From positions 1 to 48,301 of the forward strand of contig JAZDFN010000019.1 of NCBI GenBank assembly GCA_043807885.1: DNA of 48,301 bases, in the 5' to 3' direction. A program made the position numbers and the translations under genes. How positions within the stretch are numbered: the first letter of the stretch is position 1; every line of letters starts with the position of its first letter. This DNA comes from a bacterium (GTDB taxonomy: Bacteria > Patescibacteriota > Patescibacteriia > UBA2591 > JAZDFN01). The notes beneath the pieces are model-generated. The model was not told where the DNA came from and did not search any database. It saw nothing but the letters and a program-made list of their open reading frames with translations. Shown piece by piece: positions 593-42,708 of the stretch.

Positions 593-644
593 TTTATTAA
601 TTATCCTAGATTCCCGCTCCCCGATCGGAGTCGAGGACAAGTTT

Positions 645-680
645 CGCCTGCCTTGCCTGATAGCGGTCAAGGCGGGCGGG
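645..680. repeat. GC-rich imperfect hairpin directly 5' of the giant ORF; copy of a GC-rich element also present at the tRNA-Pro locus
   Basis: CGCCTGCCTTG (645-655) pairs with CAAGGCGGGCG (668-678, one G-U). GTCAAGGCGGGCGGG (666-680) is the exact reverse complement of CCCGCCCGCCTTGAC at 39289-39303. Confidence 0.6.
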
Positions 681-681
681 A

Positions 682-3600
682 ATGACAGATTTAATGGCAA
701 ATAAAAATAAAAAACTTTTTTTCGTCTGGCTGCCAATGATTTTGGCCGGGTTTGTTTTTTCCGCCCTGCCGGCTTGGGGCGCGGATTTTGGTTTGAGCCA
801 AATTGGCAATGCCATTGGTCTGGGGGGCGATGACCCGCGGGTGATGATCGCCCGCATCATCAACATCGCTTTGGGGTTTCTGGGCGTCATTGCTTTGGGG
901 TTTGTCCTTTATGCCGGCTTCCTTTGGCTGACTTCGGCCGGCGACGAGGAGAAGATAAACAAGGCCAAGAAAATTTTGATCAGCGCGGTCGTTGGCTTGG
1001 CCATCATTCTTTCCGCTTGGGGCATCACTTTGTTTGTTTTGCAAAAATTGGGCGCGGTCACCGGCGTTAACATCAACGGGGGCGGCGACGACAATGGCGA
1101 CGGCAACGGACCGCCGGCCAGCGCTTTGTTGGTCAAGAGTATTACGCCCCAAGGCGAAGTCCAGATTTGCAATCCGGTGGCGAGGATAAAGTTCAACAAG
1201 AGCATTGATCCCAATACGGTTGAAGGCAATATCATCATCAGCGCCAACAGCTCCGCCGGCTGGCGGACGATTGCCGGCACTTTGAAAATTGACGGCGCTT
1301 GGGTGGAGTTTAGGCCGAACAGCGATTGCCCGGCGCCTTATGGCGACAAGAAATGCTGGCAGTTCAATGATGACCCGACGACGGAATATTCAATCAATGT
1401 TTCTAACGGCGTTAAAGCCGCCGATGGCAGTTCTCTCTGGTGCGGTATCGGCTATGAATGCAATGGCAGTTTCACGATTTTGCAGGGCTGTTTTGTCGAC
1501 GCCAGCAGTCCGATTGTCCGAATGACCTATCCTTTTAACGGCCAGCCGATTTGCAGCGATGGCACCGCTGTCAAAGCCTTAGCTAAAGACGATACAGGCA
1601 TTGGCCGGGTGGATTTTTATGTGGACAATAATTATTTGGACGGCGACGCGCCAAGCGAAGCCAATTCAGAATCTTTTGAAGCCGAGGTTTGGTGGGAAAC
1701 CGGCGGATTGGCCATTGGTTCCAGCCACAAGCTGAAGGCCCAAGCTTTTGATTTGGATGACAATAACGCCTGGTCGAAAGAAACGTCGGTTAAGATTTTT
1801 CCGGCCCATTGCTGCAATGGTGTCCAAGACAGCGGCGAAACCGGAATTGATTGCGGCGGCGAATGCCTGGCTTGCACAGGCGATGATTGCGACAGCGGCG
1901 ATGATAATTTGGATACTTGCGTCCAGCCCGATCATCAGCAATGTATCTCCCAGTATTGCCGGGCGGACAATTGTTCCTGCTTGGCCCTGCCTTTGATTAC
2001 AGATGTCAATCCGATGGATGGCGCTTTCGGCAACTTGATTACGATTTGGGGCCAGGATTTTGGCCAAGAAGCGGGCAAAGTAATATTTTTAGGCGGAGAC
2101 GAAAATGAAAATTGTCTGGGTCTGGCGCCGAAGTCGGTTAACAGCGCTTGTACTGATTATTGGCAAAATGACCAAATTATCATCGTGGTACCCAGTTGCG
2201 GCCAGACCGGACCGATAAAGGTAGTGACGAATGTCGGCTTGTATGACCGGACTGATGATTGGCGCGGGCCGGATTTGGGCGATTTTGAAATCAATGATAT
2301 TGTCCGGCCGGGCCTTTGCTTGTTGGATCCCAGCCAAGGCCGTTTTAATGATGCCATTACTTTGCAAGGCATTAATTTTGGCGCCCAAGCCAAGCAGGTT
2401 TGGTTCGGCAATCCCTTGGGCAAAAACAAAATTAAAGCCCAGGCAATCAATAATTGGTCTAACCAGACCATTACGGCAGTCGTGCCCAATTTGAAATCCG
2501 GCAAAGTGCCGGTCTACGCGGAAGCTTTTAGCGGGCAATTCAGCAATGGCGTTAATTTTAAAGTCAGCTCAACCGACGCTGGTCAGAAAACACCCTGTGA
2601 CAGCAACCCGGGCACCAGCCAGTGCGATGCTGATAGCGACTTGTGTCCGGCTGGCGAATTTTGTGATTCAAATACTTGTTTGTGCGCAGTCGGCGATGGC
2701 AATGACGGGAATCCGCCAGCCGGCGGAGAATATTGCGACGCTGATGCCAATAATCCTGGCTGCCAAACCGATGTTAATTTATGTTCAACGGCCAAGCCCT
2801 TCTGCGACCAATTGTCCTGCGAGTGCCAGCCCTATCAGGACTGCAGTTATGTTTGGTCTTTTACTACGGCCGAAAGGACGCTTTGCGACAGTGATTCGGC
2901 CAACCCCGGCTGTCAGGCGGACCGCAACCTTTGCGCCGAAGGCGAAGAATGCCGGGAAGATTGTTTTTGCTATGCCGAAGAAACCCCGCCGACTCCGCCC
3001 GACGGCGAAGTCGAATACTGCGACAGCGACGCCCAAAATCCGGGTTGCCAAGCCGACGCGGATATGTGTTCGGCGGAACAGCCTTTCTGCGACCAATTGT
3101 CTTGTGAGTGCCAGCCCTATCAGAGTTGTAAATATGTCTGGACTTTCAAAACCGGCAGTCCTTTCGTCATTGAAGAATGCGTTGATTACAACAAAGAAGG
3201 CGCGCCTTCGCCCAGCCCCACGCCTTGGAGCAAAGTGAGCAGTAATGTTTGCATTAATGTTCTGGTTTCCGCCCGCTTCAGTGAGCCGGTGGATGAACAG
3301 TCGGTAAAGAACAACGTCAAAGTCCAGATTGACTGTTCCGGCGCCAAATCAGAAGCCGATTGTCCGGCTGAAGGCGATGGTTGTTATTGGGCCAACAGCC
3401 AGTGCGTTTCCCAGCCGTTGGCCGGCTATGTCCATGTCTATGAATGGGATACGGACAACCATTACGGCGCTTTTAAGTTCTACAAAGGAGTTATTAATTC
3501 TAGCGACCGGAGCGAAAATTATTTGCCTAACACTAAATACCAAGTCACTTTGATTGGCGGGCCCAATGGCATCAAAACCAAGGCCGGCGTGCCTTTGATT

Positions 3601-6600
3601 GACGACTATATCTGGTCATTTCAAACTCGGGATTCCAACCAGCTTTGCAAGTTGGACAAAGTGAAAGTGGTGCCGTTTAATGCCAAACTGGTCATCAAGG
3701 ACGCTTTGCAGAATTATTTAGGTGAAACCTACACCAAAGAAGATTCTTGCTTACTGCTTAATTCTGACAGCTATGATTGGGATTGGTGGTCGGAAGACGC
3801 AAGCAAAGGTAAGATTGACGATCAGGATAGCGATCCGAAAAACAGCAAGAACAATGTTCGGGCGGTTGGCGAATCTCCTTCGCCGATCAAGATCTATGCC
3901 CGCATTGAGTCGGAGAAAAAAGAAGGCTATGGCAATTTGATTATTGAGTTTGCCAATTTCGTGCTTTTGAAGCATTGGCCTTGCGGAGACGCCAATGGTC
4001 AGAACGTTTGTCCTAATGCTTTGATCGGCGCTGAATTCAACCGCCAAGTTGACCGGAAATCTTTCGGCGTCAATGAAAGCGACGGGTCGGTTAGTGGCGA
4101 CAGCATCCAAATTTATTCTTGCGACAAAGGGTCTGACTGCAACTTGAACATCTTGCCTTTCAGTAAAGGCAGTAATTGGGATAGAGAACAAAACTTGCGC
4201 GCTGATTTCTTTTTTGACGCCGGCACGGGCAATGAAGAAATCAATGTTTCCACGACGCCGTCGCTTTTGAAGATCGGCAATTATTACCGCATTATTTTCA
4301 AAGATAACAGCCAAGGCATCAAAAATTATTTGGGTGAAGAACTGGACAATCCCAACTATGACAGCGCTCGGGGCGAAGAGTGCGAAGGGGAGAGCGCTAT
4401 TTGCAAAAATTGTCTGAACCAAGGTTTGACTGTCGCTTGTTCGGAAACAACCAAAACCAATTGTTGCGGGGACAAGATCAAGGAGCCGGGCGAAGATTGC
4501 GACGATGGCAACAACTATCCGGGCGACGGCTGTTCCAATGTTTGTTTGAACGAAGGCTCTAATTTCAAAAATCAATGCGGCAATGGCAATGACCAGGATT
4601 TGGGCGAAGATCCGGGTTGCGACACGGCCAATGGTATTTTCTCGGGTTGCAACGATCATTGCGTTTTCAAGGGCTCTTTTGCTCCGGCGATTTGCGGGGA
4701 CGGCGTTGTTGACAAAGCTCATGGCGAAGAATGCGACCAGAAAGGCCAAGCCACTAATGGCGACGGCTGTTCTGGCAAGTGCTTGTTCGAGGGTATTATC
4801 AAAAATGAAGAAGGAGAAGAAGATCCAACCAAATCAACCAAAGAATGCGAACCCAACACCCAAGGCTGTGATGCCAAGGGCGTGCATCTGGGCACTTTGC
4901 CCAAGGTAACCTGCGGGAACGGCAAGATTGAAATTGGCGAAGATTGCGATGATGGTAATACGATTAAAGGCGACGGTTGTTCTGATTTCTGTCTGAATGA
5001 AGGTTCAAACAAGTTCTGGGGCAGTACTTGTGGCAACAAGGTCGTGGAAGGCCCGGAACTGGACAGTTATTCCTGGTATTTCAGGGTCAAAGAAACTCCC
5101 GGTCTCTGCCAATTGTCTAGCGTTGATGTCAAACCGGAGAAAATGACCGCTGAAGTCAATGAAACAATCAATTATCAGGCCGACGCTTATGGCGAAACTG
5201 ATGTTTGCGAGCCCAAAGGCCAGAAATTAAGGCCGGAAGATTATCTTTGGAATTGGTGGTCGGGCGACGCGAAAAAAGCGGTTGTTAATCCTTCAAGCAA
5301 TAATCAAACTGCGGTAATGACCATCGCGGAAACGGGCGATACTCCGGTTAAAGTTTTTGCTTCAGTTAAAGATAAATCCGGCGATAACGCCAAAAATGAT
5401 TTCGGCGAATTGTCCATTGTCGGCCAAGGCATCAAAGGCGGGGAATTGTGCGAGGCAAAAAAACCGAATTATCAATATAATCCCGATGCTCCGGCTGTTT
5501 GCCCGGTGGAAGTGCCGGATTGCGGTCCGGTTGAGATTTATCAGTGTTTGGTCGGTGATACTACCGGTGATGTTTGCAAAACTTATGATGATTGCCCTCG
5601 TTGTTGCTGTGAACCCAAGAAAAAATACAAGAACTTGACTTGTGAGCCAGACCAGGATGAATGCACTGGCTCAACCCGGGGCCTTTATTGCGGTTGCCAA
5701 AAAGACCTTGATTGCACCGAGGTTTATGGCGATAAATACGGCTGCGGATTTAGCGACCCGGCCAAATGCTGCCATCCTCGGCCGTGGATTACTGATTGCG
5801 ACCCGACTTTGGAGTTTACCGGCGTTCAATCGAGCGAAGATACTTGGTGCAAGAGCGGCAATAATAATTTCTGCCCCAATGGCTTAATCAAGGTTTATTT
5901 CGACCAAGTAATCAAACCCGAATCACTGGCCAACAATAATTTTGCAGTGGTTACTCGGTTAATCACCAAAGACGACGGAGAGTGTCCTAAAGGGACGATT
6001 CCGACCGGCCAGATTGATTTAGCTTTTAATAATTCTGAAGAAAATGGTTTTTTTAGCCGGGCTTTGGGCGCCCTGAATGATGGTTTGAATAAATTGTTTG
6101 GTCGTGAGGCCAAAGCGGAAATGGTTGAATTTTGCCAAGTAACCGGCGATATTTACGCTTATCAGTTGTCGGCCAAAGATGAAACAACCGAAGAAGTTAA
6201 ATATTTTACGGAAGCGATTTTCAGCCCTGATGAGAATTTGGAGTTCAGTCGGGTTTATTATGCTTTGGTGGCCGGTGATGATTTAGGAACAGGCGATGAG
6301 GGCGAGGGCGTGGTCAGCATTAAGGGTGTGGGTATGGATTTAAAAGAATCATCCAATGGCGGATGGGTGCCGGCCGGTCAAAAATCAGGCAACAACTTTT
6401 TTTGGTCATTCACGACCAAGGCCGATTTTTGTCCGATTGATCGCGTCAATGTTTACATTAACGGTAATGAAAAGCCGGCGATTTCCGATTTGTTCAATTG
6501 CACCAAGGATGATTGCCCCGACGACTTTAGCCAAAGCAAAACCGGCAACCAGCATCATTACTATGCCGAAGCGTTAGACAAGGACGGCCAAGAAATTAAA

Positions 6601-7995
6601 GCTGATTTTAAGTGGCAGGAGATTGATGCCGGTGGAGCGATTGAGGTAGGGGAGGTAGATACTGACCAACCCGACCAGAAAATAAGATATATTACGGCCA
6701 ATCCCAAAGAAGACGCCCAGGCCTATCTGGATGTTATTGCCAGCGAGGACTTTGCCAACAGCACGGCCAACCAGCTGATTGACGTCCGGGTTTTTGACTG
6801 CGCCAATCCTTGGCCGGCTTTGCCGGATGATATTTATTCTTGGCAGCCGTGGCAGGACGATGTTACCAATTTTCAATTTTATTACTGCCGCGACCGAGGC
6901 GCGATTGGCACAAGTGATGATTTACCGGCCTTGGCTAATCCGCCAGTCATTGTCAATGGTACGGGTGAAATCTTAAAAGAATTTCTTTTTGCTGTTTTAG
7001 ATAGCGACGTGGTTGGTTTCCGAGTTTTGAAAAATGCCGGCAAAAACCAAAAAATTTGTTCCAATGATTGCCAAAAGAGCTGCCTTGACGATACTGAGTG
7101 CAGTGGCGGTTATTGCCTCCGGCAATTTGCTCATTTATCACCTGGACTTTGGTATACTTTCCCTTGCAATGTGCCGGACCCGGGCAGTCCCCAGTCATTG
7201 GAAGTTGACGGCTACAAAGCCGTGCGCGATGGCCGGACAACTTATGCTTCCGCGGCCAATTCCACGCCCGCTGAAATTTTCACCAATATCTATCTGGTTT
7301 CTTACAATGAAGGCGCCAAGGCCGATACCCAAACCATCTACAACCAGATTCTTGGCCATTGGCATTTTAATACCAATTTGGATGATTATCGCGCCTGCCG
7401 GGATGCTGACGGCGAATTGTTGACTTTCGTGCCTTGCGATAATGATTTGGTTTGCCAACCATTGGGTTATTGCGACGCTCGGAAAACCAAAATTACCCGC
7501 GATACCATCCGCTTGGGCGATTTGAATGATCTGGCGCATCTTTTGGAGGCCTATTACAAAAAGAAAGAAGCCAAAGAAGGCCAGGGCGATTATCCGGCCT
7601 TGGCTGGCGGCAGTTATATTAAGGGCTTGTCCACCAGCAAATGGCCGATTTCTTGGGGTTTAACTTTGAAAGGCGAATTAGGCAAGGATTTGCCTCTTGA
7701 CCCGCTTAATCTTTTTGGCGCGGATTGCTCGTTAAAAGACGGTTATGAGGCCTCAACTTGCTGGAATGAAACCAAAAAAGATTTTTATTTGTCGCCTTAT
7801 TCCGATATTTATATTTATAAATATTTTCCCCTGACAACATCAGCGCCGGTGAATTACCATCTCTGTGCGGAATTGGAGTTTAGAGGAGATGGTTTTGGCT
7901 TGCATAATATGGCTGACCAGTGGTTCGGCTTGCCCGATTCCGCGGTTTGGGACTATAAACAGCTTAAATTCGGCCTTAGCCAATGCTATCCTTAA
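682..7995 (+). CDS. Giant (2437 aa) Cys-rich cell-surface protein with N-terminal TrbC/VirB2-like (T4SS_pilin-type) membrane head, Ig-like/IPT-TIG-like domains and Cys-rich repeats
   Basis: Uninterrupted 7.3 kb ORF. The N-terminus has a signal-like segment plus two hydrophobic helices around LYAGFLWLTSAGDEEKINKAKK. IPT/TIG-like segments: ITDVNPMDGAFGNLITIWGQDFG and LLDPSQGRFNDAITLQGINFG. Also CCNGVQDSGETGIDCGGEC, CDxDxxNPGCQxD modules and CGxGxxExGExCDDGNxxxGDGCSxxC repeats. Alternative start ATG 694 (MANKNKK). Confidence 0.85.
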   Translation: MTDLMANKNKKLFFVWLPMILAGFVFSALPAWGADFGLSQIGNAIGLGGDDPRVMIARIINIALGFLGVIALGFVLYAGFLWLTSAGDEEKINKAKKILISAVVGLAIILSAWGITLFVLQKLGAVTGVNINGGGDDNGDGNGPPASALLVKSITPQGEVQICNPVARIKFNKSIDPNTVEGNIIISANSSAGWRTIAGTLKIDGAWVEFRPNSDCPAPYGDKKCWQFNDDPTTEYSINVSNGVKAADGSSLWCGIGYECNGSFTILQGCFVDASSPIVRMTYPFNGQPICSDGTAVKALAKDDTGIGRVDFYVDNNYLDGDAPSEANSESFEAEVWWETGGLAIGSSHKLKAQAFDLDDNNAWSKETSVKIFPAHCCNGVQDSGETGIDCGGECLACTGDDCDSGDDNLDTCVQPDHQQCISQYCRADNCSCLALPLITDVNPMDGAFGNLITIWGQDFGQEAGKVIFLGGDENENCLGLAPKSVNSACTDYWQNDQIIIVVPSCGQTGPIKVVTNVGLYDRTDDWRGPDLGDFEINDIVRPGLCLLDPSQGRFNDAITLQGINFGAQAKQVWFGNPLGKNKIKAQAINNWSNQTITAVVPNLKSGKVPVYAEAFSGQFSNGVNFKVSSTDAGQKTPCDSNPGTSQCDADSDLCPAGEFCDSNTCLCAVGDGNDGNPPAGGEYCDADANNPGCQTDVNLCSTAKPFCDQLSCECQPYQDCSYVWSFTTAERTLCDSDSANPGCQADRNLCAEGEECREDCFCYAEETPPTPPDGEVEYCDSDAQNPGCQADADMCSAEQPFCDQLSCECQPYQSCKYVWTFKTGSPFVIEECVDYNKEGAPSPSPTPWSKVSSNVCINVLVSARFSEPVDEQSVKNNVKVQIDCSGAKSEADCPAEGDGCYWANSQCVSQPLAGYVHVYEWDTDNHYGAFKFYKGVINSSDRSENYLPNTKYQVTLIGGPNGIKTKAGVPLIDDYIWSFQTRDSNQLCKLDKVKVVPFNAKLVIKDALQNYLGETYTKEDSCLLLNSDSYDWDWWSEDASKGKIDDQDSDPKNSKNNVRAVGESPSPIKIYARIESEKKEGYGNLIIEFANFVLLKHWPCGDANGQNVCPNALIGAEFNRQVDRKSFGVNESDGSVSGDSIQIYSCDKGSDCNLNILPFSKGSNWDREQNLRADFFFDAGTGNEEINVSTTPSLLKIGNYYRIIFKDNSQGIKNYLGEELDNPNYDSARGEECEGESAICKNCLNQGLTVACSETTKTNCCGDKIKEPGEDCDDGNNYPGDGCSNVCLNEGSNFKNQCGNGNDQDLGEDPGCDTANGIFSGCNDHCVFKGSFAPAICGDGVVDKAHGEECDQKGQATNGDGCSGKCLFEGIIKNEEGEEDPTKSTKECEPNTQGCDAKGVHLGTLPKVTCGNGKIEIGEDCDDGNTIKGDGCSDFCLNEGSNKFWGSTCGNKVVEGPELDSYSWYFRVKETPGLCQLSSVDVKPEKMTAEVNETINYQADAYGETDVCEPKGQKLRPEDYLWNWWSGDAKKAVVNPSSNNQTAVMTIAETGDTPVKVFASVKDKSGDNAKNDFGELSIVGQGIKGGELCEAKKPNYQYNPDAPAVCPVEVPDCGPVEIYQCLVGDTTGDVCKTYDDCPRCCCEPKKKYKNLTCEPDQDECTGSTRGLYCGCQKDLDCTEVYGDKYGCGFSDPAKCCHPRPWITDCDPTLEFTGVQSSEDTWCKSGNNNFCPNGLIKVYFDQVIKPESLANNNFAVVTRLITKDDGECPKGTIPTGQIDLAFNNSEENGFFSRALGALNDGLNKLFGREAKAEMVEFCQVTGDIYAYQLSAKDETTEEVKYFTEAIFSPDENLEFSRVYYALVAGDDLGTGDEGEGVVSIKGVGMDLKESSNGGWVPAGQKSGNNFFWSFTTKADFCPIDRVNVYINGNEKPAISDLFNCTKDDCPDDFSQSKTGNQHHYYAEALDKDGQEIKADFKWQEIDAGGAIEVGEVDTDQPDQKIRYITANPKEDAQAYLDVIASEDFANSTANQLIDVRVFDCANPWPALPDDIYSWQPWQDDVTNFQFYYCRDRGAIGTSDDLPALANPPVIVNGTGEILKEFLFAVLDSDVVGFRVLKNAGKNQKICSNDCQKSCLDDTECSGGYCLRQFAHLSPGLWYTFPCNVPDPGSPQSLEVDGYKAVRDGRTTYASAANSTPAEIFTNIYLVSYNEGAKADTQTIYNQILGHWHFNTNLDDYRACRDADGELLTFVPCDNDLVCQPLGYCDARKTKITRDTIRLGDLNDLAHLLEAYYKKKEAKEGQGDYPALAGGSYIKGLSTSKWPISWGLTLKGELGKDLPLDPLNLFGADCSLKDGYEASTCWNETKKDFYLSPYSDIYIYKYFPLTTSAPVNYHLCAELEFRGDGFGLHNMADQWFGLPDSAVWDYKQLKFGLSQCYP
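2593..3153 (+). repeat. Four tandem Cys-knot-like coding modules inside the giant ORF (two are close copies)
   Basis: EYCDADANNPGCQTDVNLCSTAKPFCDQLSCECQPYQDCSYVWSFTT (2728-2868) versus EYCDSDAQNPGCQADADMCSAEQPFCDQLSCECQPYQSCKYVWTFKT (3013-3153). More diverged modules PCDSNPGTSQCDADSDLCPAGEFC and LCDSDSANPGCQADRNLCAEGEEC. Confidence 0.8.
4462..5004 (+). repeat. Cys-rich CGxG...DCDDGN..GDGCS..C repeats (myxococcal cysteine-rich repeat / DUF4215-like) inside the giant ORF
   Basis: CCGDKIKEPGEDCDDGNNYPGDGCSNVCLNEG; CGDGVVDKAHGEECDQKGQATNGDGCSGKCLFEG; CGNGKIEIGEDCDDGNTIKGDGCSDFCLNEG; one degenerate copy CGNGNDQDLGEDPGCD... Confidence 0.7.
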
Positions 7996-20661: not shown

Positions 20662-21324
20662 ATGATAGAAAAATTGAAACGAATAATTCCTATTAATATG
20701 GCCAAAAAATTACAAAGTATAGCTGTGGAAGAAAAACTTAAAACCTTGGGGCTGGCAGTGTTCACGCCTCGGGAATTTCAAGGCGTTTTTGATGTGCCCA
20801 AAAAAACCGCTTCCATGTTTATTCTAAACAACGTGAAAAGCGGCTTGTTTATAAAATTGCGCAACAACTTTTATGCGATTAAGGATAGCAACCCCGACTA
20901 TTCTTTTATCGCCAACAAATTATATCAACCTTCATATATATCGCTGGAAACCGCCTTATCGCATTATAATATTATTCCCGAAGTAGTATATGGCACCACT
21001 TCCATTACCACCAAAGCGCCTCGGGAATTCAAAACGCCGATAGGTAATTTCACCTACCAACACATTAAAACAGAAGCCTTTACCGGCTATCAATTGCAGG
21101 AAATTGATAGATATAAAGCACTGTTTGCGGAGCCGGAAAAAGCCCTGGCTGATTATTTATATTTTGTTGACCTTAAGAAAGTATCGCTTAACGATCGCTT
21201 AAAATTAAAGGGCGTTAATAGGATAAAATTGGTTGAATACGCCAAACTATTTAAACGGCCAAGCATGTTAAAACTGATTAATCAAATCTATGCTGACTCG
21301 CGCCAACCTCGAACAATTTACTAA
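20662..21324 (+). CDS. abiEi: AbiEi-family antitoxin/transcriptional regulator (type IV TA)
   Basis: wHTH-like N-terminus, conserved YISLETALSHYNIIPE block, overlaps the downstream AbiEii gene by 35 nt. Confidence 0.7.
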   Translation: MIEKLKRIIPINMAKKLQSIAVEEKLKTLGLAVFTPREFQGVFDVPKKTASMFILNNVKSGLFIKLRNNFYAIKDSNPDYSFIANKLYQPSYISLETALSHYNIIPEVVYGTTSITTKAPREFKTPIGNFTYQHIKTEAFTGYQLQEIDRYKALFAEPEKALADYLYFVDLKKVSLNDRLKLKGVNRIKLVEYAKLFKRPSMLKLINQIYADSRQPRTIY

Positions 21325-22024
21325 GCAGTCTCAGGCTAAGCTTGAGAATATTGTCAGGGAATACTGCCAACATTTGTTTTTGGCATATCTTTATCAACAG
21401 CCGGGCTCCGAGCATCTGCTGTTCAAAGGCGGTACGGCTTTGCGAATTATTTTCCATAGCTCTCGCTATTCAGAGGATTTGGATTTTACCGGGGTTAATA
21501 TAACCCAAAGGGAAGTGGAAGAAATTTTTACCAATACACTTGCTGCTTTAGAAAAAACCGGCGTTGGCGTTGAGCTGGAGGAAGGCAAGCCGACCACTGG
21601 AGGATATTTAGGCATTGTAGTTTTTCAAACATATGGAAAAAATATCCATATTCAAATTGAAGTTTCTTTAAGAAATGGCAAAAAAGCGAAAGGTATAAGC
21701 AAGCTAATTGAAAATGATTATATCCCCGCCTATACTCTTATTCACTTGGCAGAAGAAGAAATTATCAAAAGTAAGATTCAAGCTCTAATCAACCGCTATA
21801 AACCCAGAGATTTTTATGATTATTTTTTTCTACTCTCTGGCAATTTTCCGATTGTGAAAGAAAAAGAAAATCTAGCCAAAACTCTTAAATTATTACGAAG
21901 CTCAAAAATTGATTTTCGACGCGAACTTAGAGAATTTTTGCCGGCGGGCCACCTTATGCATCTGCGTAATTTCCCAAAGTTATTGGAGGAAAAAATTTTA
22001 AATTTTTTGGGTAAAGCGCGCTAA
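21290..22024 (+). CDS. abiEii: AbiEii/AbiGii-family nucleotidyltransferase toxin (DUF1814)
   Basis: LLFKGGTALRIIFHSSRYSEDLDFT matches the AbiEii NTase core motif (GGTAL...R.S.DLDF). C-terminal RDFYDYFFL block. Confidence 0.8.
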   Translation: MLTRANLEQFTKQSQAKLENIVREYCQHLFLAYLYQQPGSEHLLFKGGTALRIIFHSSRYSEDLDFTGVNITQREVEEIFTNTLAALEKTGVGVELEEGKPTTGGYLGIVVFQTYGKNIHIQIEVSLRNGKKAKGISKLIENDYIPAYTLIHLAEEEIIKSKIQALINRYKPRDFYDYFFLLSGNFPIVKEKENLAKTLKLLRSSKIDFRRELREFLPAGHLMHLRNFPKLLEEKILNFLGKAR

Positions 22025-34577: not shown

Positions 34578-35852
34578 ATGAATCATTTTATCCAACAGCT
34601 TAAAACCAGTACCGTGGTCAGAAACAGCGCCATTCTGTTTATCGGTACGATGATTTTTAATATTTTGAATTATGTTTATCATTTGGTGATGAGCCGGATG
34701 CTGTCAACCAATGACTTTGGCGAACTGGAATCATTGTTTGCTTTAATCTACCTCTTGGTAGTACCGGCGACCGCTCTGATGACCGTGGCCATGCGCTTCA
34801 GTTCGATTTACAAAGCGGAGAATAATTTGGCCAAGACCCGGCTTTTTTTAAAGAAGTTCAACCAATACCTGATTTTCATCAGTTTATTGATTATTTTGTC
34901 AGCGCTGATTTTCGGTTCGCTGATTGCCGGCTTCCTGAAATTGGAAAACCGCCAGCCCGTAGTTTTACTGGGTTTGTTCATGGCTTTTTATCTGTTCGCT
35001 CTTTTGGGGCAAGGCGTTCTGCAGGGCTGGCAGAAATTCAGTAGCGTGTCCGTGGCCCTGGTGGTCCAAGGCGTTTTGAAAGTGGGGTTGGCAATTCTTT
35101 TTGTCTGGCTGGCCTGGGGCGTCAGCGGAGCGATTGGCGGGGTGATGGCCGCGGCGCTGGCTTTTTTCCTGATGATTATCTATTTTCAGAAACGGCTGTT
35201 TAGACAAAATGATGAAAATAAGGCCACCCGGATCGAATATCAGGAAATTTGGCGATATTGCTGGCCGGTTTTTTTCACTCTTTTGGCCATCACCGCTTTG
35301 TATAATGTTGACATGATGCTGGTTAAGCATTTTTTTGACGCCGAGACCGCCGGCAATTACGGCGCTTTGGCGATATTGGGCAAAATTATTTTTTTCGCCA
35401 CCGCGCCTCTCATCAGCGTGATGTTCCCGATGGTGGCCGAGAGCCACCGTCTGCGGGGCGATTACCAGAAGGTTTTAAAGCAATCATTGGGGTTGGTTTT
35501 GGTCGTGGGCTTGTCGCCGGTAATTTTGTATTTCTGCTGGCCGAAATTGATTATCGCTCTTTTGGTGGGCAGTAAGTTTTTGGCCATGGCGCCTTATCTC
35601 GGTTGGTTGGGTCTAGCTATCTTTTTTGTCAGCTTGATTAATTTTTTAGCTAATTTTTTCCTCTCAATCCAAAAGAGGAAATTTATTTATTTTATCATTT
35701 TGGGTGTTTTGGCTTTAGTGGTTTTAATGAGTGTTTATCACCGGACTTTATGGCAAGTTATGGGGGTGATGAATGGCGTGATGGCGGGGATTTTTCTTTT
35801 GCTCTTGGGCTATTTTTTCAAATCCGCCGGCGGGCGGAAAAAAAGTGCCTGA
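34578..35852 (+). CDS. Wzx/MurJ-superfamily oligosaccharide/lipid flippase (polysaccharide biosynthesis protein)
   Basis: About 12 predicted TM segments throughout. ATG abuts the mtnP stop. Its stop overlaps the comEC start (TGATG). Confidence 0.7.
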   Translation: MNHFIQQLKTSTVVRNSAILFIGTMIFNILNYVYHLVMSRMLSTNDFGELESLFALIYLLVVPATALMTVAMRFSSIYKAENNLAKTRLFLKKFNQYLIFISLLIILSALIFGSLIAGFLKLENRQPVVLLGLFMAFYLFALLGQGVLQGWQKFSSVSVALVVQGVLKVGLAILFVWLAWGVSGAIGGVMAAALAFFLMIIYFQKRLFRQNDENKATRIEYQEIWRYCWPVFFTLLAITALYNVDMMLVKHFFDAETAGNYGALAILGKIIFFATAPLISVMFPMVAESHRLRGDYQKVLKQSLGLVLVVGLSPVILYFCWPKLIIALLVGSKFLAMAPYLGWLGLAIFFVSLINFLANFFLSIQKRKFIYFIILGVLALVVLMSVYHRTLWQVMGVMNGVMAGIFLLLLGYFFKSAGGRKKSA

Positions 35853-37303
35853 TGGCTAAGGCGAAAATTTTTCTTTGGCTCGGTTTGAGTTTTATTGCCG
35901 GCATCGCTCTCCGTTCCTGGCTGAACATTAATAATTTTCCGGCCTATTTAGCGTTTTTGGTTTGCTTGGCCTGGCTCATTATCTTTTGGCAAAATCGAAA
36001 AATTCGGTTGGTTGGATTAGGAGGGATTTTTTTATTTTTGGGAATTTTAAGGTTTAATTTGAATTTGCCGGTAATTGATGACCGGCATATTGCTTTTTAT
36101 CACAACCGGCCTTTAAATTTTGTCGGCGTAATTAAAAAAGAGCCGGACCAACGGCTTAATCAGGTTAAATTAACAATCGGCGATATCAATATTTTAGGTC
36201 AGGCGATTGAGGGGCAAGTATTAATCAGCGCCAATTTGTATCCGGCTTACCAGTATGGCGATAGGTTGAAAATAAATTGTGCTTTGACAGCGCCCGGCAA
36301 AATTGAGGATTTTGATTATGACCGGTATCTGGCGCGTTATGATATTTATTCGGTTTGCTATTACCCTAAAATAGAATTAATTGCTCAAAGGCAGGGCAGT
36401 AAATTCTATCAGGCAATCTTGAAAATAAAAGGTGAGTTGCAAACGGTTATCAATCAAACATTGCCTGAACCCCAGGCCGCCCTATTGAGCGGGATAATTT
36501 TGGGGGAGCGGGGGAATATTACGGCTGAATGGCAGCAGCGCTTTGCCCGCGCCGGCATCAGCCATATTATTGCCATTTCCGGTATGAACATTACTATCAT
36601 TGCCGGCTTATTGGTGAACTTAATGCTGTTACTGGCTATTGGCCGGCGGAAAGGTTTTTATTTAGCGGTTTTGGTTTTAATTGTTTTCATTATTTTGATC
36701 GGCGCGCCGGCTTCAGCCGTCCGCGCCGGCATCATGGGCATCCTGCTCCTTTTGGCCCAGCAAACCGGCCGGCTGGGCCAGCCGCTCAATATTTTGGTTT
36801 TCACGGCCGGCGTCATGCTGGCAATCAACCCCTTGCTCTTAAAGTCCGATGTCGGTTGGCAATTATCTTTTTTAGCCGTCCTGGGCATTCTTTATTTCAA
36901 GCCGTTTTTAGAAAAAATAAAATCAGAGAAAAGAGACAATTGGCAAATCAGGGAATCGCTGGAAATGACTTTAGCCGCCCAATTTATCACTTTGCCATTG
37001 TTAGTTTTTAATTTCGGCCAATGGTCGCTGATTGCCCCCTTAGCCAATCTTTTAATCCTGCCGGTCTTGCCTTTGTTAACCATGGCCGGCCTGTTGGCGC
37101 CTTTGCTCGGCTTATTGTGGTTGCCTTTGGCTAAGATTTTGTTCTGGCCAATCTGGCTGGTTTTAAGTTATATTCTAAAAGTGGTGGCCATTGCCGATGC
37201 TTTGCCTTTTGCCGCTTGGCAGATAAAATTTCCCTGGTGGCTGGTTGGTCTGGCCTATATTATAATTTTTTTCTGGCTTTGGCGGGAAAATCGCCGTTTA
37301 TGA
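35852..37303 (+). CDS. comEC: ComEC/Rec2 DNA-uptake channel, N-terminal (DUF4131/OB) and competence membrane domains only
   Basis: Start ATG 35852 (MAKAKIFLWLGLSFIAG). FARAGISHIIAISGMNITI competence-domain motif. Many TM helices. Ends in an ATGA overlap with the next gene. Confidence 0.85.
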   Translation: MAKAKIFLWLGLSFIAGIALRSWLNINNFPAYLAFLVCLAWLIIFWQNRKIRLVGLGGIFLFLGILRFNLNLPVIDDRHIAFYHNRPLNFVGVIKKEPDQRLNQVKLTIGDINILGQAIEGQVLISANLYPAYQYGDRLKINCALTAPGKIEDFDYDRYLARYDIYSVCYYPKIELIAQRQGSKFYQAILKIKGELQTVINQTLPEPQAALLSGIILGERGNITAEWQQRFARAGISHIIAISGMNITIIAGLLVNLMLLLAIGRRKGFYLAVLVLIVFIILIGAPASAVRAGIMGILLLLAQQTGRLGQPLNILVFTAGVMLAINPLLLKSDVGWQLSFLAVLGILYFKPFLEKIKSEKRDNWQIRESLEMTLAAQFITLPLLVFNFGQWSLIAPLANLLILPVLPLLTMAGLLAPLLGLLWLPLAKILFWPIWLVLSYILKVVAIADALPFAAWQIKFPWWLVGLAYIIIFFWLWRENRRL

Positions 37304-38779: not shown

Positions 38780-38780
38780 C

Positions 38781-38809
38781 TTGACATCAATTCGTCGGTT
38801 TGCTACAAT
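38781..38809 (+). promoter_or_regulatory. Near-consensus sigma70 promoter
   Basis: TTGACA 38781-38786, exactly 17 nt, TACAAT 38804-38809. The predicted +1 coincides with the A of ATG 38816. Confidence 0.7.
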
Positions 38810-38815
38810 CATATT

Positions 38816-38923
38816 ATGAAAACTTTTGAAATAAACAATAACCAACGGCCAAATTGGCAGTTTAGCAACCGCCAAACTTTTATGTTTGGTTATTTTTATT
38901 TTTCAAAGGTGGCTGATGGATAA
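38816..38923 (+). CDS. Candidate leaderless 35-aa micro-ORF (or the 5' part of a roughly 160-nt small RNA)
   Basis: ATG begins 7 nt after the -10 hexamer. MKTFEINNNQRPNWQFSNRQTFMFGYFYFSKVADG*. Terminator at 38949-38973. Confidence 0.3.
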   Translation: MKTFEINNNQRPNWQFSNRQTFMFGYFYFSKVADG

Positions 38924-38948
38924 TTAGATTAATTTGTCATTATTCAAA

Positions 38949-38973
38949 GGCCGCTCCAATGGGCGGTCTTTTT
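38949..38973 (+). terminator. Intrinsic terminator-like hairpin
   Basis: GGCCGC-TCCAATGG-GCGGTC (one G-U) followed by TTTTT. Confidence 0.5.
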
Positions 38974-39014
38974 AATTAGTTCTTTTCGCTAACAATTAAT
39001 TTTTGGAGGATGTG

Positions 39015-39149
39015 ATGCAAGAAGGAGAAGAGATCCTAAAAGAAGAACAGTCAACAAAGAAAGAAGGAAAAAGAATAGAGGATCTGACTGAAAAGGAGTT
39101 ATGGTCATTGTCTTTGCTTTTGGCGGAAATCGGCCAGCATGGTTGTTAA
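39015..39149 (+). CDS. Candidate 44-aa small protein (below the ORF-track cutoff)
   Basis: GGAGGA SD 5 nt upstream of ATG 39015. MQEGEEILKEEQSTKKEGKRIEDLTEKELWSLSLLLAEIGQHGC*. A strong terminator follows. Confidence 0.45.
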   Translation: MQEGEEILKEEQSTKKEGKRIEDLTEKELWSLSLLLAEIGQHGC

Positions 39150-39155
39150 TATCTC

Positions 39156-39197
39156 GGGCGGCTTAAATTTATTTAAGTCGCCCCTTTTATTTTTTTC
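39156..39197 (+). terminator. Intrinsic terminator
   Basis: GGGCGGCTTAAA-TTTA-TTTAAGTCGCCC (12 bp, one G-U) followed by CTTTTATTTTTTT. Confidence 0.8.
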
Positions 39198-39245
39198 TAA
39201 TCTCTGCTAAGCTGGTAGATATTGAAATTATCGGGGTGTCGCCTG

Positions 39246-39260
39246 TCCGCCTTGGGCGGA
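39246..39260. repeat. GC-rich micro-hairpin inserted in the D-stem of the outer tRNA copy
   Basis: TCCGCC-TTG-GGCGGA. Confidence 0.8.
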
Positions 39261-39306
39261 TATACCGGTAGTACGCATGCATGGGGTGCCCGCCCGCCTT
39301 GACTGC

Positions 39307-39377
39307 CGGGGTGTCGTATACCGGTAGTACGCATGCATGGGGTGCATGTAGACGGAGTTCAATTCTCCGCACCCCGA
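39307..39377 (+). tRNA. tRNA-Pro, anticodon GGG (CCA not encoded)
   Basis: Hand fold. Acceptor CGGGGTG/CACCCCG plus A73. U8. D-arm GTAT-ACCGGTA-GTAC. Anticodon arm CATGC-AT[GGG]GT-GCATG. 4-nt variable loop TAGA. T-arm CGGAG-TTCAATT-CTCCG. The C1-G72/A73 combination is typical of bacterial tRNA-Pro. Confidence 0.85.
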
Positions 39378-39413
39378 TAGTCAAGGCAGTCGGGCGGGCA
39401 TGTAGACCGGGTT

Positions 39414-39443
39414 TCCGCCCGTGGCGGACCCGCCTTGGGCGGG
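39414..39443. repeat. Two adjacent GC-rich micro-hairpins replacing the 5' T-stem of the outer tRNA copy
   Basis: TCCGCC-CGT-GGCGGA (39414-39428) and CCCGCC-TTG-GGCGGG (39429-39443). Confidence 0.8.
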
Positions 39444-39465
39444 CAATTCTCCGCACCCCGAAAAT

Positions 39466-39502
39466 AAAATCGCCTGTCTTGGCGATTTTATTTGTTTTTT
39501 TT
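39466..39502. terminator. Bidirectional terminator shared by the tRNA locus (+) and rpmB (-)
   Basis: AAAATCGCC-TGTCTT-GGCGATTTT followed by ATTTGTTTTTTTT on the plus strand. The 3' arm overlaps the rpmB stop codon. Confidence 0.7.
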
Positions 39503-39661
39503 CAGCGTTTTGAGGCACCGGTTGCAAATTCTCAGTCGTTTCCCGTCGACAGTTTTGGCTTGGAGATTAAGATATTGCTTTTTTCTGGTGGCGATCATGG
39601 AATGGCTGCGGGAAATTTTTATCTGGGGCCCGCGCCGGCAGATATCGCAAACTTTGGACAT
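39488..39661 (-). CDS. rpmB: 50S ribosomal protein L28 (57 aa; absent from the ORF track because it is under 60 aa)
   Basis: Hand translation of the minus strand: MSKVCDICRRGPQIKISRSHSMIATRKKQYLNLQAKTVDGKRLRICNRCLKTLKKNK*. L28 hallmarks M-x-K-x-C, SHS...T(R/K)K, NLQ. Confidence 0.85.
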   Translation of the reverse strand: MSKVCDICRRGPQIKISRSHSMIATRKKQYLNLQAKTVDGKRLRICNRCLKTLKKNK

Positions 39662-40402: not shown

Positions 40403-40819
40403 ATGCCTACGATTAACCAATTAGTCCGCAAAGGGCGGAAGACAACCAAAAAGAAAAGCAAGACCCCGGCTTTGGAAACGACTTTGAATACTTTAAGGCG
40501 CCGGCGGACGAAACTGTCCAAGGGCAGTTCTTTTAAGCGCGGGGTTTGTTTGAAAGTGACGACCAAGACCCCCAAAAAGCCGAACTCGGCTTTGCGCAAG
40601 GTGGCTCGGGTGCGCTTGAGCAACGGCATGGAAGTCACCGCCTATATTCCCGGCGAAGGCCATAACTTGCAGGAGCACAGCATTGTCTTGGTGCGGGGCG
40701 GGCGGGTCAAGGATTTGCCGGGCGTCCGCTATAAAGTGATTCGAGGCGTCTTTGATACTCAAGGCGTGGAAGCCCGCAAGCAGGCTCGGTCCCGTTACGG
40801 CACCAAACGGCCGAAATAA
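40403..40819 (+). CDS. rpsL: 30S ribosomal protein S12
   Basis: [13 protein letters not shown]..., [26 protein letters not shown]. Confidence 0.97.
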
Positions 40820-40858
40820 TATTTGAAATCTAATTAAATATTTTTTAACAACAAAACC

Positions 40859-42223
40859 ATGAATGCCCAAATCAAAAAAACCATCAGTTTAGGAGCGGTT
40901 TTGATTTTGGTTACGAGCGCTTTGGTTTTCCAAACGCCGACGGCCAGCGCCGTTCAAGCCGGGGATCTGGTGAAGATCCCGGGCAATACCGCCGTCTATT
41001 ACATCGGGGCTGACAACAAGCGCTATGTTTTTCCGCACTTCAGCGTCTATGACACCTGGTATCAGGATTATTCCCAAGTCAAGACCATTACTTTGGCTGA
41101 ACTGCAAACTTACGCCATTGGCGGAAACATAACGGTCAGACCGGGTACCAAACTGATCAAGATCCAGAGCGACCCGAGCGTCTATGCGGTCAGCACCAAC
41201 GGAGCGCTTCACAAGATTGATTCAGAAACCCGGGCCAAAACGCTTTACGGCGCCAATTGGGCCAAGCGGGTGATTGATGTGAGCGACGCTTTTTTCGTCA
41301 ATTACATCATGGATTCGGCAATCAGCTCCGACCAGCACCCGGACGGCACTTTGATCCAATATGATGTTCTGCCGGGCAACAAATATTTGGTTGGTTGGAA
41401 TGGCAAGAAACGGATTTTTAAGGATGATGCAACCTTCGCCCTCAATGGTTTTGTTTCAGACAATGTCATTACCACGACTTTGAATTATCCTGACAGTACC
41501 CAAATCGTTGAGAAAGAAAACACTTTGTCTGAACCAAAGGGTGTGTTTGATAAACCAATAGAAGAAACCAAGAAAATAGAAGTCGCCCAATTAATAGTGA
41601 CAACCGACCATAGCCAAATCGCCGCCAACGGCCAAGCCAAAGCGATTGTTACTGTCACCTTGAAGGATGCTAACGGCCAGATTGTTACTGATGCCAGCGA
41701 GCCGGTTTCTTTTAGTTCGAGTAATTCATTGGGGACTGTTTTGTCCACCAATTCCGCCGTGCCTTCAGCTGGTATTGCCAGTACGGTTTTAACGGCCGGC
41801 TATCAAGCCGGCGCCATTGAAGTGGTCGTCAGTTTGAATAATTTGAGTAAAGCCGTAACGATTAACATTGTTGGCGTGGATGTGGTTCAGCCGGGCGTAA
41901 CAATTATGTACGACCCTTCTTTAATATGGCCTTTATACAAAGATAGCGCCGGTTCAAACGAGGACTACACTTTGACTTGGAACAAGATAGAAAATGTCAG
42001 CATTGATTATTATATAGTTGAAGAGGCCACTAACAGCACTTTCACGGAAGGACTGGCCCAGTACACTGTTAATACCAACAGTATTACCTTAAATCACGCC
42101 TATCCGCAGACCAAAAAATATTTTTATCGCGTCAAGGGCGTCCATAATACCGTGGAGGGCTTGTGGAGCGGCAGTTTGGACGGCAATGTGGTGAATCATG
42201 AGGTGACCGGTACTGACATCTAA
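40859..42223 (+). CDS. Secreted protein with Big_1 (invasin/intimin-type Ig-like) and FN3-like domains, inserted between rpsL and rpsG
   Basis: Signal peptide [57 protein letters not shown] (Big_1-like). [21 protein letters not shown]...YFYRVKG (FN3-like). Confidence 0.75.
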
Positions 42224-42240
42224 CTATTTATTTTTTTATT

Positions 42241-42708
42241 ATGCGCGGCAAGCAAGCCATTAAGAGAAAAGGCAAACCCGATCATCGCTACAACAATCTT
42301 GAAGTGAATAAGTTTATTAATTACGTGATGGAACGGGGCAAAAAGACCGTGGCCCAAGCAATAGTTTACGGCGCTTTTGATATTATTGAGCAGAAAACCA
42401 AGCGCCGGCCCATTGAGGTTTTCGAAGAAGCGGTTAAGAACGTGGCGCCGGTTTTGGAAGTCAAGAGCAAAAGAGTCGGCGGAGCCAATTACCAGATTCC
42501 CATGCCGGTTCGGGGCGACCGGCGGTTGGCTTTGGCTTTGCGCTGGATTATCAAGGCCGCCCAGGCGCGCAAAGGCAAGCCGATGCGGGAAAAGTTGGCC
42601 ATGGAACTCTTGGACGCGGCCAATCGCGAAGGCGCGGCTGTTAAGAAGCGGGAAGATGTCCACCGAATGGCCGAAGCCAACAAGGCCTTTGCCCATTTTG
42701 CTCGATAA
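42241..42708 (+). CDS. rpsG: 30S ribosomal protein S7
   Basis: [10 protein letters not shown]...[22 protein letters not shown]..., [21 protein letters not shown], ...KAFAHFAR. Confidence 0.96.

Follow-up and report, generated by a model that had tools for sequence, protein, structure and literature searches.

Structure of the nested tRNA-Pro locus

The DNA stretch analyzed here (hereafter the window; 48,301 nt) is a chromosomal part of contig JAZDFN010000019.1, which was assembled from a metagenome and belongs to a member of Patescibacteria (Candidate Phyla Radiation, CPR). Between the NDK gene and the gene for ribosomal protein L28 (rpmB), the window carries an intact tRNA-Pro(GGG) gene placed inside a second, disrupted copy of the same gene, and we term this arrangement a nest. 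The 230-nt locus (39232-39461) was parsed without remainder into segments of 10 + 19 + 29 + 17 + 71 + 22 + 14 + 30 + 18 nt (Table 1). At its center lies a 110-nt cassette, made up of the 71-nt inner tRNA with one arm of 17 nt and one of 22 nt, that splits the outer copy at the 3' side of the anticodon loop/stem. With further inserts of 19 nt (insert 1) and 30 nt (insert 3), the outer copy forms no uninterrupted cloverleaf.

The core of the nest had been recognized in a first-pass annotation of the window, namely the intact inner tRNA, the GC-rich helix with a 4-nt bulge that encloses it, and the insertion of the 110-nt unit into a second tRNA-Pro copy, and our analyses agreed with all of these. 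ARAGORN detected a single tRNA in the entire window, the inner tRNA-Pro(GGG) on the forward strand, and returned the inner tRNA alone in its intron mode as well. In a local Rfam scan (700 nt), the inner tRNA matched RF00005 with 49.3 bits, the gathering score being 29. The outer copy was called as a tRNA neither by ARAGORN (normal or intron mode) nor by Rfam. Since the tRNA finders detect the inner gene only, nested loci are silently mis-annotated. A gathering-mode Rfam scan of the whole window yielded no match, the inner tRNA included; this is taken to be a filter effect, and the negative results of that whole-window scan need caution.

A repeat search recovered the helix as a pair of inverted-repeat arms (39288-39313 and 39370-39395). 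The minimum-free-energy (MFE) fold paired 39286-39295 with 39392-39401 and 39296-39305 with 39378-39387 (10 + 10 bp), with the 4-nt bulge in the right arm, and the helix below the inner tRNA amounts to 17-20 bp. The 230-nt locus folds with an MFE of -134.7 kcal/mol (z = -6.6), and none of 200 shuffled sequences was as stable. In the same fold 39444-39461 pairs with 39231-39238, and the repeat search found insert 1 to be 88% complementary to 39414-39429.

Apart from the cassette, the halves of the outer copy had been described as nearly identical to the inner gene. This holds for four outer segments, which are 100% identical to the inner copy, but the description has to be amended for the insert in the D arm, that in the T loop, and the 5' strand of the T stem, which is CCGGG in the outer and CGGAG in the inner copy. 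CCGGG is the commonest allele among the loci compared, and the 3' T-stem strand of the outer copy in the window matches the inner gene. After the three inserts were removed in silico, ARAGORN called a tRNA-Pro(GGG), of which the T stem (CCGGG/CTCCG) contained a C.C mismatch and a G.U pair.

The possibility of an assembly artefact was considered. The repeats in the locus are no longer than 29 nt, and seven independent assemblies contain the same design with different sequences; thus, the nest is probably no artefact of assembly.

Table 1. Coordinates of the nest in the window and of related features. Positions "pos" are those of the tRNA.
Feature	Position	Strand	Remarks
Terminator-like hairpin	39156..39183	+	12-bp stem with 6 G-C pairs, then T run; closes upstream unit and marks 5' limit of tRNA unit
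Possible weak promoter, TTCTAA-17 nt-GATATT	39195..39223	+	Read by eye; failed consensus scan
Outer copy pos 1-10 (5' acceptor strand, pos 8-9, first D-stem base)	39232..39241	+	100% identical to 39307-39316
Insert 1, 19 nt, in outer D arm after pos 10	39242..39260	+	Palindromic hairpin TCCGCCTTGGGCGGA at 39246-39260
Outer copy pos 11-39 (D arm, 5' anticodon strand, GGG loop, first two 3'-strand bases)	39261..39289	+	29/29 identical to 39317-39345
Left helix arm, 17 nt	39290..39306	+	Pairing begins at 39286-39288; 15/15 bases match hairpin at 666-680
Inner intact tRNA-Pro(GGG), 71 nt, no encoded CCA	39307..39377	+	ARAGORN and Rfam RF00005; presumed working gene
Right helix arm, 22 nt, with 4-nt bulge	39378..39399	+	Arm duplex -28.9 kcal/mol
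Outer copy pos 40-53 (rest of 3' anticodon strand, variable loop, 5' T-stem CCGGG, T-loop TT)	39400..39413	+	39400-39407 = inner pos 40-47, 100%
Insert 3, 30 nt, in outer T loop	39414..39443	+	Two adjoining 15-nt palindromic hairpins, TCCGCCCGTGGCGGA then CCCGCCTTGGGCGGG
Outer copy pos 54-71 (rest of T loop, 3' T stem, 3' acceptor, discriminator A)	39444..39461	+	18/18 identical to 39360-39377
Bidirectional terminator	39462..39493	.	Perfect 13-bp AT-rich hairpin, T runs on both strands; common to tRNA unit (+) and rpmB (-, 39661..39488)
TCCGCC-N3-5-GGCGGA palindromes	1252, 2712, 8225, 9973, 12492, 35823; in nest 39246, 39414		
Arm-related hairpin without tRNA, halves CCCGCCCGCCTTGACCGC and TATCAGGCAAGGCAGGCG	640..690	-	15-nt exact match to left arm (666-680), E = 5e-4 within window
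ComEC	35750-37303		DNA-uptake gene

Nests in other Patescibacteria

We scanned metagenome contigs for exact matches to the 29-mer that covers tRNA positions 11-39. The 29-mer was found in at least 120 contigs, indicating that tRNA-Pro(GGG) is extremely conserved, and most of the matches were plain genes. Among the matches listed, at least seven further nests of the design seen in the window were found in distinct Patescibacteria contigs, each of which could be parsed exactly. Six of the seven (L188, L148, L105, L123, L138, and L135) are split at positions 37-41; the outer copy of the seventh, L131, is degenerate and strongly diverged, and its split lies in the T loop. The outer copy of L188 bears a 30-nt T-loop insert, and L148 possesses the same insert together with two additional ones in the D region. 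L123 (= L198) has a 40-nt hairpin in the T loop, and in L105 an additional element of 87 nt separates the left arm from the outer 5' half. In L138 the outer 5' copy continues into its T loop, and in L135 the outer 3' half is almost gone. No orphan tRNA fragment was found more than 450 nt from the tRNA gene, so the nests are compact. Altogether, a tRNA gene inside its own disrupted copy represents a new bacterial gene architecture, present in at least eight Patescibacteria contigs. No description of a bacterial tRNA nested in its own gene was found in the literature searched, in line with what the first-pass annotation had supposed.

Partial duplications of other kinds were also observed. In L142, L199, L098, L203, L181, and L173 (tRNA-Pro), L101 (tRNA-Arg CCG), and L149 (tRNA-Ala), an intact tRNA is followed by a GC-rich structured insert of 16-160 nt and then by a duplicated 3' fragment, which begins in or before the T loop. 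The inserts have the motifs GAGGGGTGAG, the hairpin loop AAACTGCTTT, and CGGAGCG...GCGAGGCGGGG in common and gave no Rfam match; the loop motif AAACTGCTTT is found in the extra elements of the nests L105 and L135 as well. In L145 (5863-5960) and L192 (1437-1534), a second, 5'-truncated copy comes after a plain tRNA-Pro(GGG), and two GC-rich hairpins, GTCGCC..GGCGAC and CCCGCC..GGCGGG, stand in place of the D region of this copy.

Inner and outer copies

L148 and L188 are diverged from each other, their S12 and M50 genes being 77% and 69% identical at the nucleotide level, respectively. The outer copies of both nests carry the allele CGGGCTGTCG...CCCCGCAGCCCGA (CGGGCTGTCG...CAGCCCGA), which is that of the plain genes in L147 and L187, and the latter two cluster with L148 and L188 in the M50 neighbour-joining tree. 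The inner acceptor stems, CGGGGTA/TACCCCG in L148 and CGGGGTG/CACCCCG in L188, differ from the outer allele, and the arms of the two nests are unrelated. An outer copy of the sister allele enclosing an inner copy of a different allele fits an incoming copy that replaces the resident gene. In the window, the inner tRNA is identical to that of L135 at 70 of 71 positions, whereas the M50 proteins of the two are only 45% identical. We infer from these alleles that the outer copy is the resident gene and the inner one its replacement, often of another allele, with some homogenization between them.

The integrity of the outer copies varies among the nests. Those of L148 and L188 are devoid of the 5' T-stem strand. 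The outer acceptor stem is paired at all seven positions in five of the eight nests, at six in L138, at five in L123, and at four in L135.

Complementary arms

The arm sequences are lineage-specific and always complementary, the matched duplexes having a mean of -20.0 kcal/mol compared with -5.2 kcal/mol for mismatched pairs. Among about 107 testable tRNA-Pro(GGG) loci, strong leader-trailer duplexes were found only in nests. The arms are mostly unrelated between nests, with the exception of an AT-rich left-arm family comprising those of L148, L123, and L105. In L105, the arms form a perfect 15-bp helix despite about nine differences over 38 nt in the outer 5' half; by a rough estimate, drift at the rate of that outer half would be expected to break roughly six of the 15 pairs. 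In L135, 14 of 16 arm positions pair (one of them G.U), and the outer half has six differences over 38 nt. Since the arms stay paired while the outer copies decay, they are either selected at the level of the RNA/hairpin or regenerated.

Helices of a related kind were found around another tRNA. Ten of the 17 tRNA-Pro(CGG) genes located inside tRNA operons (those in L094, L096, L100, L101, L112, L152, L154, L163, L170, and L173) are flanked by leader-trailer helices of 9-15 contiguous bp that extend the acceptor stem, and the helix sequences vary by lineage. Long helices extending the acceptor stem are rare elsewhere, the most common contiguous run being 2-3 bp. A stem around a non-terminal tRNA thus occurs in ordinary operons of this group too, and the CGG helices may be a lineage-specific feature of pre-tRNA processing. 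To our knowledge, leader-trailer helices of this kind have not been described for bacterial pre-tRNAs.

Hairpin inserts and related repeats

Both inserts 1 and 3 contain the palindrome TCCGCC-N3-5-GGCGGA, which occurs eight times in the window against 0.01 expected from shuffled sequence. Outside the nest, the palindrome occurs as six 16-mers with an NGCN center, located within long open reading frames (ORFs) and in differing reading frames. Because of their 4-nt center and their location within long ORFs, these are not certainly the same element as the inserts of the nest. The palindrome may serve as an uptake signal or as a protein-binding site, or it may be a mini-repeat. No Rfam family accounts for the inserts or for the arms.

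The outer T loops of L148 and L188 contain a 32-nt two-hairpin module. In L147, a sequence with 100% identity to it makes up the final codons and terminator of a gene located about 780 nt downstream of the plain tRNA, and L148's own copy of this gene lacks the module. As the module stands at different places in L147 and in L148/L188, such hairpins behave like units that are movable or templated.

A GC-rich hairpin related to the arms of the nest was found once elsewhere in the window, at 640-690. Besides the match to the left arm (Table 1), it has the 8-mer CAAGGCAG in common with the right arm, and its loop contains GC|TA exactly at the position at which the nest carries the tRNA. The hairpin precedes immediately the start of a 2437-aa ORF (682..7995) and overlaps the ribosome-binding region of this giant surface-protein gene.

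Genomic context and orthologous loci

Pfam scans identified in the window the genes for ComEC, a metallo-beta-lactamase-fold protein, NDK, L28, an M50 protease, S12, S7, FtsA, FtsZ, ribonucleotide reductase, and glutamine synthetase, and the closest relatives of the M50 protein were from Patescibacteria genomes. Among the 41 ORFs of the window, the same scans detected no integrase, transposase, RAYT, or reverse transcriptase family and no splicing endonuclease or ligase family. The cassette has no room for a gene, since its 110 nt are fully used by the tRNA and the two arms. Terminator-like hairpins stand on both sides of the whole unit, and a consensus scan gave no promoter or terminator match inside the composite. 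These features are consistent with a processed composite precursor, one of the three possibilities raised in the first-pass annotation, the others being a tRNA-carrying mini mobile element and a scar of recombination.

Plain single tRNA-Pro(GGG) genes are found near rpmB in other genomes; no true pair of empty and filled sites was found. In L007-L010, which are more distant Patescibacteria, the M50 gene is divergent from rpmB, and a plain tRNA-Pro(GGG) of 75-77 nt follows on the rpmB strand. The gene order in L211, a complete genome (AP024682.1), is the NDK gene, a gene for a 136-aa protein, rpmB, and a plain tRNA-Pro(GGG). The nest in the window is on the strand opposite to rpmB, while the tRNA and rpmB are on the same strand in the other genomes. 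In the nearest relatives by flanking genes, L081 (M50 93% identical) and L207 (NDK 93% identical), the equivalent position is without a tRNA. L207 matches the window only up to 38783 and L081 only from 39495 onward; thus, the nest and about 450 nt next to it sit between two synteny breakpoints.

The breakpoints at 38783 and 39495 coincide with the ends of this stretch. The part between the NDK gene and the nest (38780-39230, about 450 nt) matches neither relative and contains a strong promoter-like site (38781-38809), two terminator-like hairpins, and short ORFs of 21-48 aa.

A proposed composite transcription unit with the inner tRNA as the working gene

We propose that the nest is transcribed as one unit. 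The working gene would be the inner tRNA, clamped or processed by the helix, and the outer copy would be a broken relic into which hairpin repeats have moved. We give this reading a probability of roughly 0.55. The resident tRNA-Pro(GGG) would have been split at the 3' side of the anticodon loop/stem by the 110-nt cassette, of which the complementary leader and trailer extend the acceptor stem of the inner tRNA. The composite is predicted to be made as one transcript, the promoter and the terminator still being provided by the outer relic; the TTCTAA-17 nt-GATATT pair would place the transcription start a few bases from position 1 of the outer copy. The inner tRNA would then be released by RNase P at the 5' end and by trimming and CCA addition at the 3' end, probably after a cut in the helix. 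The helix may keep the inner tRNA as a folding domain of its own and, since its fold is isolated in this way, the identical outer halves could not mis-pair with it. Three inserts interrupt the relic, two of them consisting of small GC-rich palindromic hairpins.

As to their origin, nests may go back to rare founding events followed by inheritance or by transfer between lineages. One possible route of transfer is homologous recombination through the highly conserved tRNA halves, given the DNA-uptake genes (ComEC). The nests could be lost again, repeatedly, by recombination between inner and outer copies. Decay of the outer copy would lock the arrangement in, since the inner copy, being essential, can then no longer be lost. 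Provided that the proposal is correct, the nest is a natural case of an essential gene replaced from within and then locked in. The locus also offers a concrete substrate for questions of pre-tRNA processing in bacteria with reduced genomes.

Several points weigh against this proposal. A leader-trailer helix that runs directly into the acceptor stem would be expected to hinder RNase P. The candidate promoter is weak, and both the expression and the processing of the unit are predictions from the sequence. The outer segments in the window match the inner copy over 65 nt with 100% identity; either the nest would then be young, or gene conversion has taken place, or the outer copy is under selection. 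The outer 3' parts of L148 and L188 differ at 2 of 56 nt, although their S12 genes are only 77% identical, and this conservation could mean that the outer RNA has a function. Finally, the proposal gives no mechanism by which the nests were founded.

Alternative explanations

Another explanation takes the arms and the tRNA as a non-autonomous cassette, which would be inserted site-specifically into the cognate anticodon arm by an enzyme encoded elsewhere, the replacement tRNA compensating for the damage. A cassette of this kind would account for an insertion site that is kept within 2 nt in seven of the eight nests, for the inverted-repeat ends with a possible, ambiguous 2-bp 'GC' duplication, and for an inner allele that differs from the resident one. 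The scattering of the nests among plain lineages in the M50 tree, the related 'empty' hairpin at 640-690, the synteny breaks on both sides of the nest, and the left-arm family of L148, L123, and L105 also speak for it. Nevertheless, most nests have no arm sequence in common, the ORFs of the window include no candidate for the enzyme (transposase, integrase, RAYT, or reverse transcriptase), no multi-copy family was seen (one related hairpin in 48 kb), and the right arms of L105, L123, and L148 start like an ordinary CCA-A/T-rich trailer. We regard such a cassette as unlikely. A mini mobile element that replaces its own gene had been suggested in the first-pass annotation; the replacement is in agreement with the resident outer and different inner alleles of L148 and L188, but its mobility is disfavored by arms that differ across most nests, by the lack of a recombinase, transposase, or reverse transcriptase in the window, and by the single arm-related hairpin outside the nest. 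If the cassette were mobile, or if the outer halves were spliced, the importance of the nests would be much higher.

Alternatively, the nest may be a structural scar of template switching during local replication and imply no mobility at all. The acceptor stem, being self-complementary, would have seeded a fold-back by which the trailer was copied in inverted orientation, and further switches would have re-copied the tRNA. The arms run directly into the acceptor stem in L105, L188, and L135, and two right arms resemble the outer trailers of their own loci (CCAAAAGAATAAAA versus CCAAAATAAAATG in L105; CCAAGCTGA versus CCAAGTTAGA in L138). The T-loop insert of L148 and L188 looks templated from the sequence about 0.8 kb away, and the partial 3' duplications after tRNA-Arg (L101) and tRNA-Ala (L149) are compatible with the same process. 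We consider template switching quite improbable, as about three switches are needed at the same position in several lineages, and neither the allele differences between inner and outer copies in L148, L188, and L131 nor the arm families common to distant hosts are explained.

A further speculation, which we consider rather doubtful, is an undescribed type of tRNA-gene turnover in Patescibacteria, in which a helix-flanked tRNA cassette invades its cognate gene at the anticodon arm. The cassette would move without any protein of its own or by way of an RNA/complementary DNA intermediate, and the transcript would be handled by a leader-trailer-stem processing that other bacteria lack.

It is very improbable that the outer copy is a functional multi-intron tRNA, from which the three inserts are removed and the exons ligated to yield two tRNA-Pro per transcript, as is the case for archaeal multi-intron and split tRNAs. 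The idea draws on the insert-free sequence being called a tRNA-Pro(GGG), on the perfect identity of the outer segments to the inner copy, on the likeness of the arms to the complementary leaders of split tRNAs, and on the insert positions, which we take to be typical of archaeal non-canonical introns. In a simple scan with a junction shift of 4 nt allowed, no bulge-helix-bulge with both flanking helices was found at any junction. Rfam scans of the locus and eight related loci in E-value mode found no group I/II intron or ribozyme, giving only tRNA and chance-level matches. The 'spliced' T stem contains a C.C mismatch, the 5' T-stem strand is missing in L148 and L188, and the outer copy is decayed in L105, L135, L131, and L123. 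Altogether, the absence of a bulge-helix-bulge and of a ribozyme match and the damaged outer copies in relatives render archaeal-type splicing unlikely. In addition, a 2014 review lists self-splicing group I and II introns as the only disruptions of bacterial tRNA genes then known (PMC4033280). If the outer halves were re-joined after all, this would be the first protein-dependent tRNA splicing in bacteria.

Just as improbable in our view is a two-piece, tRNA-like RNA serving as a decoy, regulator, or scaffold, in which the arms and the acceptor stem would keep the outer halves together once the inner tRNA has been set free. The outer copies of L148 and L188 are far more alike than the neighboring genes, the outer acceptor stem is fully paired in five of the eight nests, the inserts lie mostly in loops, and the topology resembles the tRNA-like domain and long helix of transfer-messenger RNA (tmRNA), to which a weak match (26.3 bits) was found in L181. 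The outer copy is, however, decaying in L105, L123, L131, L135, and L138, the conserved T-loop module is a repeated unit that is also found elsewhere, and no conserved non-tRNA sequence is common to all nests.

Three other possibilities were rejected or given less weight: integration by an integrase (there is no integrase, neither is a core duplicated at both junctions, and a complete tRNA comes with the insert), a single family of mobile elements with conserved ends (most nests have arms that are completely different from each other), and an origin by reverse-transcriptase stops at m1G37 or in the T loop, which is speculative, the boundaries at 37-41 and 53-60 fitting loosely and no reverse transcriptase having been found.

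Comparison with known systems

The nearest analogues of the nest are archaeal disrupted tRNAs, attachment sites of integrative elements, rRNA processing stems, and palindromic repeats, and each of them fails at least one defining feature. The nest can be likened to a gene disrupted by an insert that brings its own replacement. The multi-intron tRNAs of Thermoproteales and the split and tri-split tRNAs of Nanoarchaeum and Caldivirga are similar to the nest in the interruptions of the D arm, anticodon arm, and T loop and in the complementary sequences by the break, which join the two halves. In contrast to these, the host of the nest is bacterial, no bulge-helix-bulge is present, the place of the 'intron' is taken by a second full copy of the same tRNA, and in relatives the outer copy decays instead of being restored. 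The introns of archaeal disrupted tRNAs behave as movable units (PMC10714607; PMC4033280). According to a 2014 review, the structure of bacterial tRNA genes is uniform, group I/II introns being the only significant disruption then known (PMC4033280). Bacterial tRNAs with such introns resemble the nest in being interrupted beside the anticodon, but the insert of the nest is a tRNA with a helix and has neither a ribozyme core nor an Rfam match to such introns.

The nest resembles the sites of integrative elements in the sublocations within the anticodon arm and T loop, in the replacement of the disrupted gene by the copy brought in, and in the orphan 3' fragment (positions 40-71) downstream. Integrative elements at tRNA attachment sites carry a copy of the 3' part of the tRNA (attL/attR), and the window has a direct repeat of this kind, with positions 40-47 and 54-71 present again on the 3' side of the inner gene. 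A second copy of the 5' part (positions 1-39) lies upstream as well, a feature atypical of attachment sites. Furthermore, unlike integrative elements, the insert is of 110 nt, carries no integrase, brings a whole tRNA, and is bounded by inverted rather than direct repeats.

In rRNA operons, both the processing stems and the intervening sequences are cut by RNase III. As with these stems, the mature RNA of the nest is carried at the end of a long leader-trailer helix that forms part of a longer transcript; the helix of the nest differs in flanking a tRNA, and its cleavage by RNase III is hypothetical. Repetitive extragenic palindromic sequences and bacterial interspersed mosaic elements (REP/BIME), Rickettsia palindromic elements, and miniature inverted-repeat transposable elements (MITEs) are palindromic repeats of small size that insert into genes. 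Like these, inserts 1 and 3 are short stable hairpins, their motif is over-represented, and one module is found at different places, but the units are only 15-16 nt and no associated transposase was seen. As regards a MITE-like, non-autonomous transposon, the cassette itself has imperfect inverted arms of 17-22 nt, the sole candidate for a target-site duplication being an ambiguous 2-bp 'GC'. In engineered 'tRNA scaffolds', a foreign RNA replaces the anticodon arm. The acceptor, D, and T arms frame a cargo-bearing helix there as in the nest, which differs in being natural, in having a tRNA as the cargo, and in its damaged frame.

Additional observations

A BLAST search of the locus against a phage collection gave no match. 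Exact-sequence look-ups of the L28, M50, and S7 proteins of the window gave no match either. A degenerate pattern of the anticodon arm had two matches in viral contigs (L205 and L206). The S12 and S7 genes (40403-42708 of the window) are parted by a gene for a 454-aa protein with an Ig-like/invasin domain, and the same is true of the relative L083 (3781-6279). The S7 gene is followed by PIG-L and glycosyltransferase genes in the window but by the elongation factor G gene in L083. The gene for an AbiEii-type nucleotidyltransferase toxin (21290-22024) lies in a low-GC stretch (about 38-42% GC from 20 to 27 kb of the window), which may be an island.

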